Positions 1 through 64,000 of a stretch of 64,000 bases of DNA are shown piece by piece. The stretch's first letter is position 1; the number at the start of each line of letters is the position of its first letter. Location of the stretch: the IMG/VR virus record IMGVR_UViG_3300045988_160113, positions 1-64,000 of that record, one strand, 5' to 3'. The stretch comes from a virus. The notes under the pieces are model-generated. The model had not been told where the DNA came from. It saw nothing but the letters and a program-made list of their open reading frames with translations, and made no database searches. The translations under genes were made by a program, and so were the position numbers.

Positions 1-127
1 ATAGCGAAGTTACCCTATAAGGTAGAGAATTTCCTTATGTAGTAAAGAATTTACCTGGCGCAAATTTTCAGTGAAATCAAATTTTCAAACCCATAATCAA
101 TTCAAAGTTGAATAAACCTAATAAAAT

Positions 128-156
128 TTGACTTTTCAATAAATTTTTTGTATAAT
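128..156 (+). promoter_or_regulatory. sigma70-type promoter
   Basis: TTGACT (128-133), 17-nt spacer, TATAAT (151-156). Points toward the 383-1084 gene. Confidence 0.5.
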
Positions 157-272
157 ATGAATAGAAAATAAAATAAAAAATATTATTCTGTTATCCTGTT
201 TATTATTTTCTCTCTAGCTGTTCTCTTCCTAGATAAAACTTATAGAATAAATATGATAAAAAATGGAACAAA

Positions 273-356
273 ACGTAGTAATTTTTGGAACGGAACATAG
301 AAGAAATTGGAACAGAACGCAGTAATTTTTGGAACAAACGCAGTAATTTTTGGAAC
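273..356. repeat. three direct repeats ACG(T/C)AGTAATTTTTGGAAC (iteron-like) plus extra GGAAC(A/G) half-sites
   Basis: Copies at 273-291, 317-335 and 338-356. GGAACA/GGAACG also at 265, 287, 292, 309. Lies directly upstream of the RBS of the 383-1084 gene. Confidence 0.8.
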
Positions 357-382
357 ACTTTTAGTAAAGGAGGTGAAACAAA

Positions 383-1084
383 TTGAATGATTATGAAAGA
401 AGAAGAATTGATGGGCGCGCAGGAGAAAAAGGAATCCGTGATAATTTATTGAATACTTCAACTCGTGCAGTCCAGTATTATCTTCTGTCAATTAGTACTT
501 GGAATATGTCTAAGTATGAAGACCACTATTATCTTCGTAAAAAGGACATCAATAAGACGGAGATGGCTAGAAAGCTGAATTTAGGTAGGACTACTATCTA
601 TCGTAGTTTTACTGCTTTGAAGACGCGCGGCCTCCTCAGAGAAGACGATACCTATTATATTCTTCCTATGCCAGAAGCTTATTCTGTTATGCGACGTGAA
701 GTTTTGGAATATCTAATAGGCTATTTCAAAATTTTTGGAAGTGATATTATTAGAATTTGTGCAATTCTAAAATATATTCCAGAGAGTCGCAGAAAGCAAG
801 GCTTCAATGCTTCTGAGTTAGTATATATGCTTGAACACGTGCCTACTATGGAGACTAGAGTAGATGTATGTTCTATGTTAGCTGTATTAGAAAGGGATGG
901 TTTTATAAAATATCATAAGCAATGGATAACTAATAATACAGGCTTGCAATATTATAAGTATTATATTGATGAAGTAAAAATAGAAAATCTACCGCAGACT
1001 GTCGATAAAGATGAGCCGATTGACTTAGAAGATATTGAAGAGCTGAGAAAAGGTTTTATTGAAGCTGAAAGTAATATAAAGTAA
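383..1084 (+). CDS. HTH / winged-helix DNA-binding protein (regulator or initiator candidate)
   Basis: 233-aa ORF. TTG start 6 nt after AAAGGAGGTG. HTH-like segment KTEMARKLNLGRTTIYRSFTALKTRGLL. Flanked by iteron-like repeats. Confidence 0.55.
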   Translation: MNDYERRRIDGRAGEKGIRDNLLNTSTRAVQYYLLSISTWNMSKYEDHYYLRKKDINKTEMARKLNLGRTTIYRSFTALKTRGLLREDDTYYILPMPEAYSVMRREVLEYLIGYFKIFGSDIIRICAILKYIPESRRKQGFNASELVYMLEHVPTMETRVDVCSMLAVLERDGFIKYHKQWITNNTGLQYYKYYIDEVKIENLPQTVDKDEPIDLEDIEELRKGFIEAESNIK

Positions 1085-1148
1085 TTTACAAAACGCAGAG
1101 GAATTTTTTACACTTTTTCTTTACATTTATACATTTCTAATAAAAAAC

Positions 1149-1166
1149 ATAATAATTTTTGGAACA
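1149..1166. repeat. fourth, partial copy of the AGTAATTTTTGGAAC repeat
   Basis: ATAATAATTTTTGGAACA lies downstream of the 383-1084 gene. Confidence 0.6.
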
Positions 1167-1213
1167 ATTTTAGCTGAAATTCGAAACACTTATTGACAAA
1201 ATATACAAAACTA

Positions 1214-1243
1214 GGGCGGAGTTTACCTCCGTCCTTTCCTTTT
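1214..1243 (+). terminator. rho-independent terminator candidate
   Basis: GGGCGGAG-TTTAC-CTCCGTCC stem (one G-U pair) followed by TTTCCTTTT. Confidence 0.45.
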
Positions 1244-61377: not shown

Positions 61378-61382
61378 TTATT

Positions 61383-61976
61383 TCACCACTCTTCAATATT
61401 ATAAATTTCCTTTTTTCTTTCTTTCTCCATACGAGGAACGATAAGCATAGTTTCTTTTGGTTTTTCTTTACTAATAGAAGCTTCTATTTCTTTCTGCTTT
61501 TTATCAAGCATCTCATAATATTTCATTGCATTATCATAAATAAAAGGAAGAATACCTATGCCACCCTTAGATTTAGAATAATCTCCATGTTGAACTTCAT
61601 AGAAATATTTGAAAGCCTTATACATATTTTGTAAAGTCCAGCCCTCATTTTCATGCTTATTTAACATTTTAGTAAGTTGGTCTTTTACTTTTTGAAAATC
61701 CATTTCTTTATGAAATTTTTCTTTGATATATCTATACATAGCATCAGCACAAAGATGGATTTGTTCTTCGCGCGCAGAAGCGTCTTTTAGAGGAGATTTT
61801 GCCATAACTTTATTACGGTCTTTTTTCTCTTCATAACATTTTACATGATAATACCATTTTTTTGGATACTGTACATAATCATATCCATCAATGCCACCTT
61901 TAGGGATAAGTTTGCCACACCAGCGACATTTCCAATAACCATTTTTATAATTTTTATTATCTAATTTCTCTGTCAT
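61383..61976 (-). CDS. zinc-finger hypothetical protein (replication-module accessory)
   Basis: 197 aa. CRWCGK...HVKC. Confidence 0.5.
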   Translation of the reverse strand: MTEKLDNKNYKNGYWKCRWCGKLIPKGGIDGYDYVQYPKKWYYHVKCYEEKKDRNKVMAKSPLKDASAREEQIHLCADAMYRYIKEKFHKEMDFQKVKDQLTKMLNKHENEGWTLQNMYKAFKYFYEVQHGDYSKSKGGIGILPFIYDNAMKYYEMLDKKQKEIEASISKEKPKETMLIVPRMEKERKKEIYNIEEW

Positions 61977-62035
61977 AAGAACACCTTTCCATATAGACCA
62001 AATGGGTGAGAGATTACTCCCTCACCCTAATTATA

Positions 62036-63004
62036 TCAAAGCTCTTTCATTCCAGAGATAACAAGCTCAAATAGGTCTTGCTGAGAAGAAGTAATTTCAG
62101 AAAGCTTAATGGGACGGTCAAAAATCTTTTCGGCAATTGCCATAATTCTTGCCGCATTATTTGGGTCTTTATCAATTAACTCCTTCCAAAGTTTCTCTGC
62201 TTCTGCTCGAACTTCTTCAAAAGAACGAACAGGCTCTTCAACTTTTTTGTCATTGTTATCTACTACAGTGGCTCCATGTTTTGCTTCCTCTTCAATAGCA
62301 TTAGCAAGTGCTTCAGTAAGTTCCTGATATCCAAATGGGATACGTGCAGGAAGATACTTGAATCGGCTACCTGCCTGTACCGAAGGCGTAGAACGAGTAT
62401 ATAGATAACGATGAGCTTCACCATTTTCATCAAACTGAATACCAATATAACCAATAATATCAACTAATTGGTTAATAATGGCCGCACCACGTTTAGGAAG
62501 AGCTGGACCAATAATAGTTACATCTTCACCCTTATCATTTTTAATAACTTTTTCCTCGCTATGGGCAATAATAATCAAACCATAACCCATAAGAGTAATC
62601 TGACGAAGAGCATCTTCAAATTCACGCTTACAAGCAGTAAAACCTTGACCCCAAGGGATATCATTGATTTTACTTACATTGTTCTGTGTGCAAATAAATT
62701 TTTCACAAAGTTCCCATGCAATGCCAACTGTATCAATGGTAACCGTGTGATACATTTCTTTGGCCTTAACACTTGCTAACTGCTTTAGAACAGTTTTGAA
62801 TTCAGACCATTTAGTAATATCTTGAGCATGGATACCTGCAATACCATTATAACCTCTCTCAAAAGCAAGAAGAAGATTATTAGGAGCCTGAGCAGCAAAA
62901 GAAGTCTTTCCTGCCTTTGGCTGGCTATATAAGCAGATATACTTTCCTCTAAGGTCACGGCTGATAGTAGTAGGCGCAATATTTAAAATATCAATTACTG
63001 CCAT
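62036..63004 (-). CDS. Sak4-like / AAA_24-type RecA-fold ATPase
   Basis: 322 aa. Walker A YSQPKAGKTSFA and Walker B-like LIIIAHSEE. Confidence 0.65.
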   Translation of the reverse strand: MAVIDILNIAPTTISRDLRGKYICLYSQPKAGKTSFAAQAPNNLLLAFERGYNGIAGIHAQDITKWSEFKTVLKQLASVKAKEMYHTVTIDTVGIAWELCEKFICTQNNVSKINDIPWGQGFTACKREFEDALRQITLMGYGLIIIAHSEEKVIKNDKGEDVTIIGPALPKRGAAIINQLVDIIGYIGIQFDENGEAHRYLYTRSTPSVQAGSRFKYLPARIPFGYQELTEALANAIEEEAKHGATVVDNNDKKVEEPVRSFEEVRAEAEKLWKELIDKDPNNAARIMAIAEKIFDRPIKLSEITSSQQDLFELVISGMKEL

Positions 63005-63019
63005 TACTACTTACCTCCC

Positions 63020-63895
63020 TTAGAAGCCAAAATCAGGCTTGGAAGGAGCACTAACTACGGGCTTCTTAGTCTCCTCAATACGCACTTTACGTGCAGCAAG
63101 AGCAGACTGGATATCTTTGATATCATATGCAGCATCGCCCTCAAGGCAACCAGCAGAACCAGATTCAATAATTAGTTCATGAACTGAAACCGTTTTAGCA
63201 GTCTTAATAGGTTCACCAAAACCAACCTCTTCTACAGTATACTCAGTTTTAGAAGAGAAATTTACCTTACCCTGAATACGAACGGTATCACCATCGTTCC
63301 AATACTGTTCAATATGATTCTTAGCATTCTCACTAGCAACAATAAACTTCACCAGGTCTGCGCGGCCACCATACTGAATAAGCACACCATTAACACAAAG
63401 ACGACCAGTGGGAGTACCTTCCTTATCAATTTCATCAGCCTTATTACCCACAACAATAGTAGAAGTAAAAGTAGCCTCTGGCTTACACTCATTCTTAGGA
63501 ATCTTATTGATAAAACTTGCCTCAATACGAGAAGTATCGACTAGGTCACCGTTCTTAGCATAGAAGACATTTTCCTTTAAAGCACCGCTGGTAATACGCA
63601 CACGGTCTGCCTCATCAATATTACCACAAGCTGCAATAGACTTAAAGTTCTCCATAACATCTTTGACAGAGTTATAAGCTGGATTTTCAGTACCAGCATT
63701 GGTGTAACGGGTTACGAAAGTGCTAATAGGAACTTCCATTTCAGTCATTGTACCATTAACTTCCTGATCAACACGAATTTTAATAGTACCACGAATACAT
63801 TCCTTAGTCTGACCATTCTTGGTAATTGTTGCGTTATTTAGGTCTACCTCTGAGAGAATACCACAAATTGTAACTTTGTTCTCACTAATATTCAT
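63020..63895 (-). CDS. single-stranded DNA-binding protein candidate
   Basis: 291 aa, first gene of the replication operon. The C-terminal tip PDFGF is reminiscent of SSB acidic/aromatic tails. The call rests on position and that weak motif only. Confidence 0.35.
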   Translation of the reverse strand: MNISENKVTICGILSEVDLNNATITKNGQTKECIRGTIKIRVDQEVNGTMTEMEVPISTFVTRYTNAGTENPAYNSVKDVMENFKSIAACGNIDEADRVRITSGALKENVFYAKNGDLVDTSRIEASFINKIPKNECKPEATFTSTIVVGNKADEIDKEGTPTGRLCVNGVLIQYGGRADLVKFIVASENAKNHIEQYWNDGDTVRIQGKVNFSSKTEYTVEEVGFGEPIKTAKTVSVHELIIESGSAGCLEGDAAYDIKDIQSALAARKVRIEETKKPVVSAPSKPDFGF

Positions 63896-63944
63896 ATAAA
63901 ATTTACCTCTTAATAATTTATTTTATTCATTTTATTCATTCATT

Positions 63945-63999
63945 TCAAATAAAAAAATATGGGAAGAACCAATCAATTTAATATGTGTTCTTCCCATAT
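63945..63999 (-). terminator. rho-independent terminator (minus strand) upstream of the replication block
   Basis: Minus strand ATATGGGAAGAAC-loop-GTTCTTCCCATAT followed by TTTTTTTATTT. Confidence 0.65.
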
Positions 64000-64000
64000 A

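Follow-up and report, generated by a model that had tools for sequence, protein, structure and literature searches.

The 64,000 nucleotides analysed here, positions 1 to 64,000 of the IMG/VR virus record IMGVR_UViG_3300045988_160113 (the whole stretch being called the window), carry short runs of alternating G and C in great excess. In this AT-rich phage DNA such runs exceed chance or codon usage about 10-40-fold, and, with a little better than even confidence, they would represent a highly iterated word, that is, a dispersed recognition site kept by selection. The core of the word is GCGCG/CGCGC, longer forms are preferred, the full form in this genome is CTGCGCGCAG, and the word is written wherever the protein sequence or the non-coding DNA tolerates it. 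We infer that it is read by a protein working on the phage DNA. Judged from its genes, the window is part of a large SPbeta-like gut siphovirus of about 134 kb.

An exact search for maximal alternating G/C runs was applied to the whole window, which has a GC content of 34.7%. A previous sequence-only reading of this DNA had located by hand 66 runs of at least six alternating G/C, and the scan returns 66 at the positions listed, aside from two coordinate slips: the run placed at 45837 truly starts at 45827, and, among the longer palindromes, 13177-13190 (14 bp) and 14036-14047 stand, but TCTCGCGCGAGA, placed at 19146-19157, truly lies at 19145-19156. Its rough figures of one third GC and about 2-3 hexamers expected by composition agree with the calculation (1.6-2.4 each under order-0 and order-1 Markov models), its approximately 26 extended loci are the sum of 14 GCGCGCAG and 12 CTGCGCGC, and the five copies of CTGCGCGCAG and the two of GGCGCGCC lie where it had put them. 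Compared to the order-1 Markov expectation, GCGCGC was observed 54 times instead of 2.4, CGCGCG 39 times instead of 1.6 and CTGCGCGCAG five times instead of about 0.01. Counting both strands, GCGCG occurs 217 times against 22.2 +/- 5.2, and none of 100 dinucleotide-preserving shuffles reached 217.

The excess depends on run length. Isolated 4-nt runs are at the order-1 expectation (83 observed, 87 expected), and therefore bare GCGC or CGCG is not the unit; runs of 5 nt number 58 against 15, those of 6 nt 42 against 2.2, those of 7 nt 21 against 0.3 and those of 8 nt three against 0.1, with none of 9 nt or more (expectation about 0). Thus, the fold excess climbs from about 4x at 5 nt to 19x at 6 nt and 70x at 7 nt, with a ceiling at 8 nt, and the odd-length runs of 5 and 7 nt, which are non-palindromic, are also in excess. 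When exact k-mer counts were set against Markov models, a check that the sequence-only reading had proposed, GCGCGC and CGCGCG stood far above orders 0 and 1, and the models of order 3 and order 4 accounted for most of the hexamer excess. As these models absorb it, the signal consists of the 5-mer GCGCG/CGCGC and its extensions, with no unique 6- to 10-mer, and maximal-order Markov tests singled out no 7- to 10-mer other than the core with its CT/AG. This also rejects a hidden repeat of greater length or a mobile element, because flank conservation ends 2 nt out and there is no specific longer word. The excess is limited to G/C alternation, since AT, AC, AG, CT and GT alternation are all at expectation in the window, which also discards general repeat slippage; non-palindromic G/C-only hexamers are merely 1.7x over expectation.

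Regarding the coding sequences, 70 genes were called in the window, and synonymous codons were shuffled within each gene (500 shuffles). Runs of at least 6 nt inside coding sequences number 55, compared to 10.4 +/- 2.8 after shuffling (z = 16, shuffle maximum 19), and the codon-preserving null gives 7.5 GCGCGC and 5.5 CGCGCG where 46 and 33 are present. The most deviant words of 4 to 8 nt under this null are CGCGC (185 vs 50) and CTGCGCGC (20 vs 1.0). If codon choice were the cause, a possibility raised along with the original observation, codon-aware shuffling should give similar counts, and it does not. Site creation at the DNA level against the codon preference, as had been proposed, is also seen in the codons themselves. 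Outside the early region, CGC makes up 13% of Arg codons and GCG 12% of Ala codons, with a third-position GC content (GC3) of 0.20; Arg-Ala is written as CGC-GCN in 36 of 66 cases (18% expected) and Ala-Arg as GCG-CGN in 30 of 78 (8.7% expected), while CGC before other G-starting codons shows no elevation. In Leu-Arg-Ala runs, CTG, which is 5% of Leu codons, is used in five out of five.

The preference can also be expressed as occupancy, which is the number of uses over all places where the protein sequence permits the word synonymously. GCGCGC occupies 46/184 of these places (25%), CGCGCG 33/184 (18%) and CTGCGCGC 11/34 (32%), compared to about 1% for each of GGCCGG (1/112), GCCGGC (1/122) and GGCGCC (1/107). 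The sites fall, as initially described, in genes and in intergenic DNA, in every module and on both strands: the non-coding 9.5% of the window contains 11 of the 66 runs, and reading frames 0/1/2 hold 14/15/17 GCGCGC and 10/13/10 CGCGCG. Moreover, the dipeptides themselves lie over their composition, by 1.35x for Arg-Ala and 1.67x for Ala-Arg, with outgroup phages at about 0.92x pooled. Synonymous shuffles and opportunity counts rule out codon usage or amino-acid content as the cause, and the codon-aware excess, the synonymous occupancy and the non-coding runs together indicate an effect on DNA and not on translation. The excess is a property of the DNA, and not of codon usage, amino acids, dinucleotides or general slippage.

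The geometry of the runs is simple. Maximal runs of at least 5 nt number 124 in the window, with a mean spacing of 512 bp and a coefficient of variation of 1.08; the spacing is Poisson-like, the widest gap is 2.2 kb and no periodicity was found in the window. A coefficient of variation about 1 excludes regular spacing or clustering. Against local order-1 models, 5-mers and 6-mers are enriched 5.2x and 9.1x in the early module, 11.6x and 28x in the structural module and 13.4x and 41x in the replication module; absolute run density peaks in the early region, and the fold excess is higher in the AT-rich structural and replication modules. GC heterogeneity was discarded as the cause, as the excess is greater in the modules of 33% GC than in the early region of 41% GC. 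Both strands are used alike, with 111 GCGCG and 106 CGCGC, which together with the near-even counts of GCGCGCAG and CTGCGCGC upholds the absence of strand bias noticed before; odd runs on the coding strand stand at 34:17 against a coding-constraint null of 0.56 (p = 0.12).

The structural genes of this phage belong to the YonB, YonD, YonG, YomW and YomU families, its terminase is approximately 40% identical to those of Geobacillus E3, Alicyclobacillus KKP_3916 and Enterococcus phages, and the replication module encodes a split PolIII-alpha, a DnaB-like helicase, a primase, RecJ-like and RuvC-like proteins, NrdD, dUTPase and a ThyX-like protein. It is found on contigs of 130-136 kb in many human gut metagenomes, and no nucleotide-level relative exists among the deposited phages. 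The same excess continues in about 60 kb past the window (1.9-3.2 runs per kb, 10-40x) and is present in near-identical strains and in an 82%-identical lineage (L007, L050, L055, L057; hereafter the L007 lineage), as well as in most of a wider clade (terminase identity 53-66%) sampled from the gut of humans, ruminants, rabbits and other sources, L008, L012, L035 and L040 included. The clade member L037 has no run excess, and L033, L038, L041 and L043 have a weak one. The comparison with related phages, which had been suggested from the start, thus places the excess in most of the clade and not in SPbeta, Geobacillus E3, Enterococcus H1, Lactococcus 949 or phAss-1; three other large gut phages, with NrdD 72-76% identical, have no run excess either. 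It had been reasoned that enrichment in unrelated phages of the same host would point to mutational or repair bias; the other gut phages examined, for which host-sharing is not established, are without excess. Within a clade of SPbeta-like phages from gut and rumen the excess is thus inherited, and the flanks of the runs depend on the lineage.

The host was searched for by three routes. A terminase scan of GTDB genomes found nothing, a profile scan of the genome collection gave only phage contigs mis-binned into unrelated metagenome-assembled genomes (MAGs), and the best NrdD homologues (72-76% identity) were in other large phages; there are no tRNA genes in the window. The clade contigs from the GTDB genome collection, L033-L043 (33-129 kb), look like such mis-binned phage contigs, the MAG labels being Bacteroidales, Muribaculaceae, Methanobrevibacter, Bacilli, Faecalibacillus, Lachnospiraceae, Clostridium, Staphylococcaceae and Acutalibacteraceae. 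The genetic code of the window phage is the standard one. The terminase genes of L008, L011, L012, L035 and L036 (about 10001-11740 of each locus) carry 5-14 in-frame TAG at Gln positions of the others, which indicates TAG-to-Gln recoding (code 15), as in phAss-1.

Creating these sites is the reverse of restriction-site avoidance, as had been remarked, and the same genome strongly avoids other words. In the window, the four-base palindromes TTAA (227 vs 759), GATC (17 vs 216) and CTAG (56 vs 188) are depleted, as are TGCA, CATG, TCGA, AGCT and GTAC, probably through avoidance of host restriction. The depletion of TTAA and GATC is common to the L007 lineage and not to L008-L012, so this signal is separate from the G/C runs. 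The avoidance also implies that base modification gives this DNA no general protection.

The comparison of strains shows how the runs evolve. Between strains of 94-99% identity, control hexamers are better conserved than the runs; at the distance of the L007 lineage (82% identity) the order is reversed, 61% of the runs being kept compared to 36-42% of control hexamers. Strain variants at runs are nearly all synonymous third-position transitions (CG<->TG/CA), and no +/-2 nt length polymorphism was seen among close strains, the variants being substitutions. At monomorphic synonymous pyrimidine sites that complete a run of at least 5 nt, C is present in 56%, compared to 7% at other CpG sites and 14-17% at non-CpG sites. 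The inferred rate of C loss in runs is 0.34 (0.31-0.47 at other third-position C), and the inferred rate of C gain is 0.28 at run sites and 0.10 elsewhere. At the four-fold sites of GCN, the bases are G46 A24 T19 C6 in run context compared to a baseline of G17 A28 T74 C16, and the needed base gains from all three alternatives, clearly for GCN and less so for CGN. In the terminase, conserved Arg-Ala and Ala-Arg positions bear runs in many lineages. The runs resemble a large set of interchangeable sites, each of small advantage, which turn over yet keep a high equilibrium occupancy, with weak selection acting on their density; an odds ratio of about 8 would correspond to a scaled selection coefficient close to 2. 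Neither hypermutability of 5-methylcytosine (5mC), nor a Vsr-type ratchet from T:G to C:G, nor slippage has left a sign.

Candidate readers of the word were sought by Pfam/PHROG annotation in about 125 of the approximately 134 kb, with the window lineage and the L007 lineage combined, and this is the scope of the gene searches mentioned below. No DNA methyltransferase (PF00145, N6/N4), Vsr, ParB or Z-alpha-like domain was found there. The annotated genes include a sigma-like factor, a type II topoisomerase, a UvrD-like helicase, a ligase, RNase H, ClpP, PhoH, an RNA ligase, many homing endonucleases and several small helix-turn-helix (HTH) proteins; two small winged-helix (wHTH) proteins gave only generic PDB sequence matches. 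The topoisomerase subunits, GyrB-like and GyrA/ParC-like, are encoded at 3186-9260 of contig L027 (about 1.5-7.7 kb past the window end), the GyrB-like gene being split by a GIY-YIG gene in some strains, and beyond them lie genes for a UvrD-like helicase, an ATP-dependent ligase, RNase H and a deoxynucleoside monophosphate kinase. The phage topoisomerase was discarded as a co-occurring reader, as its gene is also present in phAss-1, which is not enriched, and in many other phages.

One explanation, considered unlikely, is that the runs form an iterated palindrome linked to methylation, in which a cytosine methyltransferase of the host, or an unrecognised one of the phage, would act on GCGC, CGCG or GCGCGC together with methyl-dependent or Vsr-type repair or selection. 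These three words are typical type II targets (HhaI, BstUI and BssHII). In cyanobacteria, the highly iterated palindrome HIP1 and its alternates co-occur with methyltransferases that recognise their core, for which a repair ratchet was proposed (PMC4390886), and methylated HIP1 raises transformation (bioRxiv 10.1101/2024.09.10.611283). The predominance of CG<->TG/CA differences at the runs also fits this explanation; however, these transitions are ordinary synonymous third-position changes, and the C of a run is lost no faster than other third-position C, so that the signature of a 5mC-type hotspot is missing. Isolated GCGC and CGCG are at expectation, neither a methyltransferase nor a Vsr domain was found in about 125 of the approximately 134 kb, and alternatives that differ by a transversion are depleted at four-fold sites. 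The modification-enzyme target offered by the sequence-only reading is therefore lowered, as no methyltransferase was seen and the run cytosines are not hypermutable. In Escherichia coli, very-short-patch hypercorrection by Vsr leaves an excess of CCWGG and a deficit of CTWGG/CTAG. The runs resemble that case in being a methylation-target-like word whose excess comes from a DNA-level process independent of coding. Unlike in E. coli, the interior one-off variants of the hexamers are not depleted relative to the codon-preserving null, whether they arise by transitions to T and A (0.98 and 1.17) or by transversions (1.06 and 1.22), the excess is far larger, the four-fold sites show the depletion of transversion alternatives already mentioned, and no vsr or dcm-like gene was found.

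Turnover of sites between close strains is rapid, and this would also be expected if a replisome or repair system extended GC alternation by substitution, through dislocation or template misalignment stabilised by G:C pairs, with runs growing until selection removes frameshift-prone lengths. Such a replication artefact would account for an excess that grows with run length and ends at 8, for gains of the needed base from all three alternatives and for the restriction to a clade, as would be the case for a polymerase property. It is nonetheless held to be quite improbable: other dinucleotide alternations are not in excess, close strains lack the +/-2 nt length polymorphism, neither the lineage flanks (CT...AG) nor the rare CTG codon is predicted, and the Arg-Ala and Ala-Arg dipeptides are themselves over-represented. 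Moreover, outgroups with homologous PolIII-alpha replisomes, as well as the clade member L037, have no excess.

The flanks of the runs follow a rule that changes with lineage. CT precedes 25% of the ends of G-starting runs in this phage and 43% in the L007 lineage, giving CTGCGCGCAG; in L009 the flank is TG (the TG...CA form), giving TGGCGCGCCA, and L040 prefers C-starting runs (CCGCGCGG). The two half-site flanks of one run are statistically independent, and the same flank rule holds at both. This pattern brings in a rival to which little confidence is given, namely that the runs are sites of a phage-encoded dimeric protein binding duplex DNA, from an unrecognised family, with a role in nucleoid formation, bridging, self-marking or packaging, whose optimum would be the palindrome CTGCGCGCAG and whose weaker sites would be any run of at least 5 nt. 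The full site is a perfect palindrome whose half-sites obey one rule, and the core is constant while the flanks shift by lineage, as occurs with the co-evolution of a protein and its site. In addition, the trait tracks the phage clade and not other gut phages with related NrdD, the intergenic copies at 13092 and 13181 are invariant across strains (the CTGCGCGCAG core of the palindrome at 13177..13190 being unchanged in every aligned strain and in the L007 lineage), and the phage has several small winged-helix/HTH proteins whose target is not known. HIP1, the closest analogue, was argued to be selected for a role in nucleoid structure (PMC5861425). Against such a protein, no candidate was identified in about 125 kb, the small wHTH proteins have generic matches only, the non-palindromic runs of 5 and 7 nt are also in excess, symmetric flanks are no commoner than independent half-sites predict and the spacing has no periodicity.

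The flanks also bear on the view of the runs as structural elements, whether Z-DNA-prone supercoil sinks, preferred type II topoisomerase sites or GC clamps in AT-rich DNA. The alternation itself is enriched over a continuous range of 5-8 nt, d(CGCGCG) is the classic minimal Z-DNA unit, GyrB-like and GyrA/ParC-like subunits are encoded just past the window, and a T before G-starting runs prolongs the pyrimidine-purine alternation. However, a pyrimidine mostly precedes C-starting runs and breaks the alternation, the C at the -2 flank has no structural rationale, CA/TG alternation is not in excess, and tracts of 5-8 bp are too short for Z-DNA in vivo independent of proteins. As homologous topoisomerase genes also occur in phages without enrichment, such as phAss-1, and no Z-alpha-like protein was detected, the structural view seems very unlikely.

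Returning to the recognition word kept by selection, the leading specific mechanism, in which only low confidence is placed, is a Chi-like attenuator of a nuclease; a phage-encoded duplex-binding protein is considered about equally likely. The sequence-only reading had offered five possible functions without choosing one, among them a Chi-like signal, a binding protein and Z-DNA. By analogy with Chi, a host helicase-nuclease of the AddAB/RexAB type would degrade linear or broken phage DNA, whichever direction it came from, it would encounter a GCGCG-type word after no more than a few hundred bases, and the word would switch it from degradation to recombination, an even-length run showing the word on both strands simultaneously. 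Known Chi sequences are GCGCGTG in Lactococcus and Streptococcus (RexAB) and the 5-mer AGCGG in Bacillus subtilis (AddAB) (PMC5959072). The word shares its GCGCG core with the streptococcal and lactococcal Chi, has a comparable size of 5-8 nt and a density comparable to that of the B. subtilis 5-mer, and is dispersed in many weakly selected, interchangeable copies. One word per about 300 bp, the Poisson spacing and the patchy phage distribution are consistent with a host-specific density signal, and, as Chi is host-specific, patchiness among related phages is to be expected. A Chi-like role would explain the selection on density, the patchiness among relatives and the presence on both strands.

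Several points weigh against this reading. Chi is asymmetric and orientation-biased in chromosomes, whereas the preferred full form here is palindromic and without orientation bias, so that a dimeric duplex-binding protein fits at least as well; the missing bias is not decisive, as it is not strictly required of Chi in a phage attacked from both ends. Taken alone, the GCGCG core is asymmetric, but its complement is just as frequent. GCGCGTG itself is rare in the window (8 copies), and related phages do not enrich the Chi of their hosts: in 50 kb of Lactococcus phage 949 there is no GCGCGTG, and the AGCGG count of SPbeta is as expected. In the SPbeta locus (L016, 50001-100000), AGCGG was counted 25 times on one strand and twice on the other, a strongly skewed orientation with a total at expectation. 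Furthermore, the host genome was not found by the terminase, profile or NrdD routes, and a candidate reader protein was not identified in about 125 kb. Weak selection can also be imitated by a mutational process that writes the word, whether dislocation of the polymerase at GC repeats or some biased repair.

Among known systems, the closest is found in cyanobacteria, where HIP1 (GCGATCGC) and its alternates are G+C-rich palindromes in 15- to 300-fold excess, present in all frames and between genes (PMC5861425, PMC4390886). HIP1 was argued to be under selection (PMC5861425), and these palindromes have been linked to methyltransferases, possibly through a repair ratchet (PMC4390886), and recently to transformation (bioRxiv 10.1101/2024.09.10.611283) and to Chi-like effects. 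The alternating runs are likewise a short, G+C-rich, largely palindromic word in large excess, in all frames and in intergenic DNA, at about one per 0.5-1 kb, with lineage-specific variants and, at 82% identity though not among the closest strains, conservation above control words, and they raise the same debate between selection and biased repair. The differences are that the carrier is a phage and not a cellular genome, that the word is a variable alternating run of 5-8 nt instead of a fixed octamer, with flanks preferred at just 25-43% of run ends, that neither a cognate methyltransferase gene nor a methylation signature was found, that the spacing is not periodic, and that a link to natural transformation is inconceivable for a virion genome. 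An excess above 10-fold and independence of frame are thus shared with HIP1, and methyltransferase co-occurrence and fixed length are not. It is tentatively proposed that a clade of SPbeta-like gut phages may have evolved a HIP-like word system without a methyltransferase, with approximately 250-400 sites per genome and lineage-specific flanks, read by an unrecognised phage or host protein and marking or protecting the phage DNA, as a bidirectional palindromic analogue of Chi or as a self-marking or nucleoid-organising signal.

Other systems are more distant. Uptake signal sequences and DNA uptake sequences (USS/DUS), FtsK-orienting polar sequences (KOPS) and SpoIIIE recognition sequences (SRS) are also short words in genome-wide excess, in and between genes, kept by a machine that reads sequence; they differ in their length of 8-12 nt, their asymmetry, a usual skew between strands and their link with cellular competence or chromosome segregation. 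To our knowledge, no word of the USS/DUS/KOPS/SRS type is known in a phage genome or of alternating G/C, and the literature searched gave nothing relevant on alternating-GC excess in phages. The sequence-only reading had also pointed to sites of a sequence-specific nickase, as at the single-strand interruptions of T5. T5 is likewise a large siphovirus, its major nicks are annotated at the consensus Pu|GCGC, and the present phage has many HNH and GIY-YIG nuclease genes. However, the nicks of T5 are few and confined to one strand, and its genome is depleted for GCGC (38 vs 72) and GCGCG (11 vs 23), so its nick sites set no precedent for enrichment; the sites here are palindromic without strand bias, so that nicks on the two strands would cleave the genome at intervals of about 500 bp; and the nuclease genes, which differ from strain to strain, show the behaviour of homing endonucleases. 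The nickase is accordingly lowered to a highly improbable explanation.

The coordinates of the modules and of the runs are given in Table 1.

Table 1. Modules of the window and alternating G/C runs with their positions, strand where given, and context.
Feature	Position	Strand	Details
Early-gene module	1..12900	-	GC 41%; 45 runs of at least 5 nt, 3.5 per kb
Structural module	12901..44600	+	GC 33%; 52 runs of at least 5 nt, 1.6 per kb
Replication and nucleotide-metabolism module	44601..64000	-	GC 33%; 27 runs of at least 5 nt, 1.4 per kb
CTGCGCGCAG, full 10-bp palindromic form	10329..10338		CTG-CGC-GCA (Leu-Arg-Ala), read on the minus strand
CGCGCGCG, 8-nt run	11402..11409		Varies between strains; 8 nt is the longest class, with three such runs
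GCGCGC within TCTGCGCGCTGT	13092..13097		Intergenic; run kept in all aligned strains and the L007 lineage
CTCTGCGCGCAGAG, 14-bp perfect palindrome	13177..13190		Intergenic, between the divergent early and structural modules
TCTGCGCGCAGA, 12-bp palindrome	14036..14047		In the sigma-like gene; CTG-CGC-GCA (Leu-Arg-Ala)
CGCGCGC	16032..16038		Large terminase gene, conserved Leu-Arg-Ala; run at this column in 7/10 clade members
GCGCGCG	16695..16701		Large terminase gene, conserved Phe-Ala-Arg-Glu; run in 5/10 clade members
GGCGCGCC	19005..19012		Flank form preferred in the sister lineage L009
TCTCGCGCGAGA, 12-bp palindrome, CGCGCG core	19145..19156		Strain variants CGCGCG / CGTGCG / CGTGCA
CTGCGCGCAG	36890..36899		Tail gene, Leu-Arg-Ala
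CGCGCGCG, 8-nt run	39955..39962		CGC-GCG-CGG (Arg-Ala-Arg)
CTGCGCGCAG	40253..40262		Tail gene, GCG-CGC (Ala-Arg)
GGCGCGCC	57620..57627		
CGCGCGCG, 8-nt run	58522..58529		CGC-GCG-CGA (Arg-Ala-Arg), read on the minus strand
Remaining runs, 6-7 nt each (first = 415..420)	Starts: 415, 624, 1249, 1463, 1672, 1859, 1927, 2189, 2759, 2983, 4265, 6412, 7001		
Remaining runs, 6-7 nt each	Starts: 7088, 8376, 8433, 10101, 10128, 10247, 12631, 13802, 14705, 15646, 18691, 24198, 24289		
Remaining runs, 6-7 nt each	Starts: 26283, 28226, 31864, 32940, 33051, 33478, 36636, 37866, 40761, 41790, 45001, 45537, 45827		
Remaining runs, 6-7 nt each	Starts: 46679, 46747, 46830, 47138, 48806, 50954, 51150, 55009, 55285, 58070, 59816, 60752, 61769		

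The early region (1-12900) differs from the remainder of the window in composition, with a GC content of 41% and a GC3 of 0.45, compared to 33% and 0.20 elsewhere; CGC makes up 36% of its Arg codons, and it contains many spurious antisense open reading frames. It also carries a distinct repeat, the inverted repeat TGTAGTAGTCTG-N2-4-CAGACTACTACA, present in 13 perfect or near-perfect copies between 1545 and 10480 (26 half-sites, as at 9417-9442). These copies lie in the gaps between small minus-strand early genes, each adjoining a TTGACA -35-like box, and the repeat folds to an 11-bp hairpin of -18.7 kcal/mol (z = -2.8). From its position and folding, it is probably an early-gene operator or terminator element. 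In the equivalent early-gene gaps of L008, L009, L033 and L041, GCCCGGGC occurs instead. This sequence was considered as an alternate genome-wide palindrome of the sister phages and rejected, as all of its copies are in intergenic gaps of the early region, and its confinement there makes it a separate promoter-proximal repeat. Two abundant lineage-specific words, ACGTCTAAA in L011, L012, L034 and L040 and AGTCTAAA in L037, may be counterparts of this early-gap repeat.

Directly after the intergenic region that holds the invariant CTCTGCGCGCAGAG palindrome, positions 13332-14576 encode a protein of 414 amino acids with a match to a phage sigma-factor family and a C-terminal Lar-like zinc ribbon. 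The PolIII-alpha (DnaE-like) gene, at 51674-56792, is divided into parts of 835 and 502 amino acids by a GIY-YIG+HTH homing endonuclease gene (53329-54150); in L022, L028 and L029, the protein is uninterrupted, with 1345 amino acids. Other homing endonuclease genes differ between strains, such as that at 41988-42635. An HNH homing-endonuclease-like gene lies at 47300-48205, in place of which L018, L022, L023 and L024 carry a radical-SAM (NrdG-like) gene of 169 amino acids.

A practical consequence is that a composition rich in such runs can distort k-mer-based binning, and the contigs of this clade are already misfiled in MAGs. Over-represented words have been informative before, as Chi, uptake sequences, KOPS and HIP1 each pointed to a machine that reads DNA, and HIP1 is still without an explanation after thirty years. 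The phage offers a small genome, dozens of sequenced natural strains and sister lineages with altered flanks or no signal, which bring comparative and synthetic tests within reach. Should the word control a helicase-nuclease of the host or a chromosome-organising protein of the phage, it would represent a new route by which AT-rich phages protect or organise their DNA, and it would also supply a sequence signature for host prediction. If the proposed reading is true, a genome-wide signal of the HIP or Chi kind would for the first time be shown as a phage trait, and it would offer a tractable way into the HIP1 problem.

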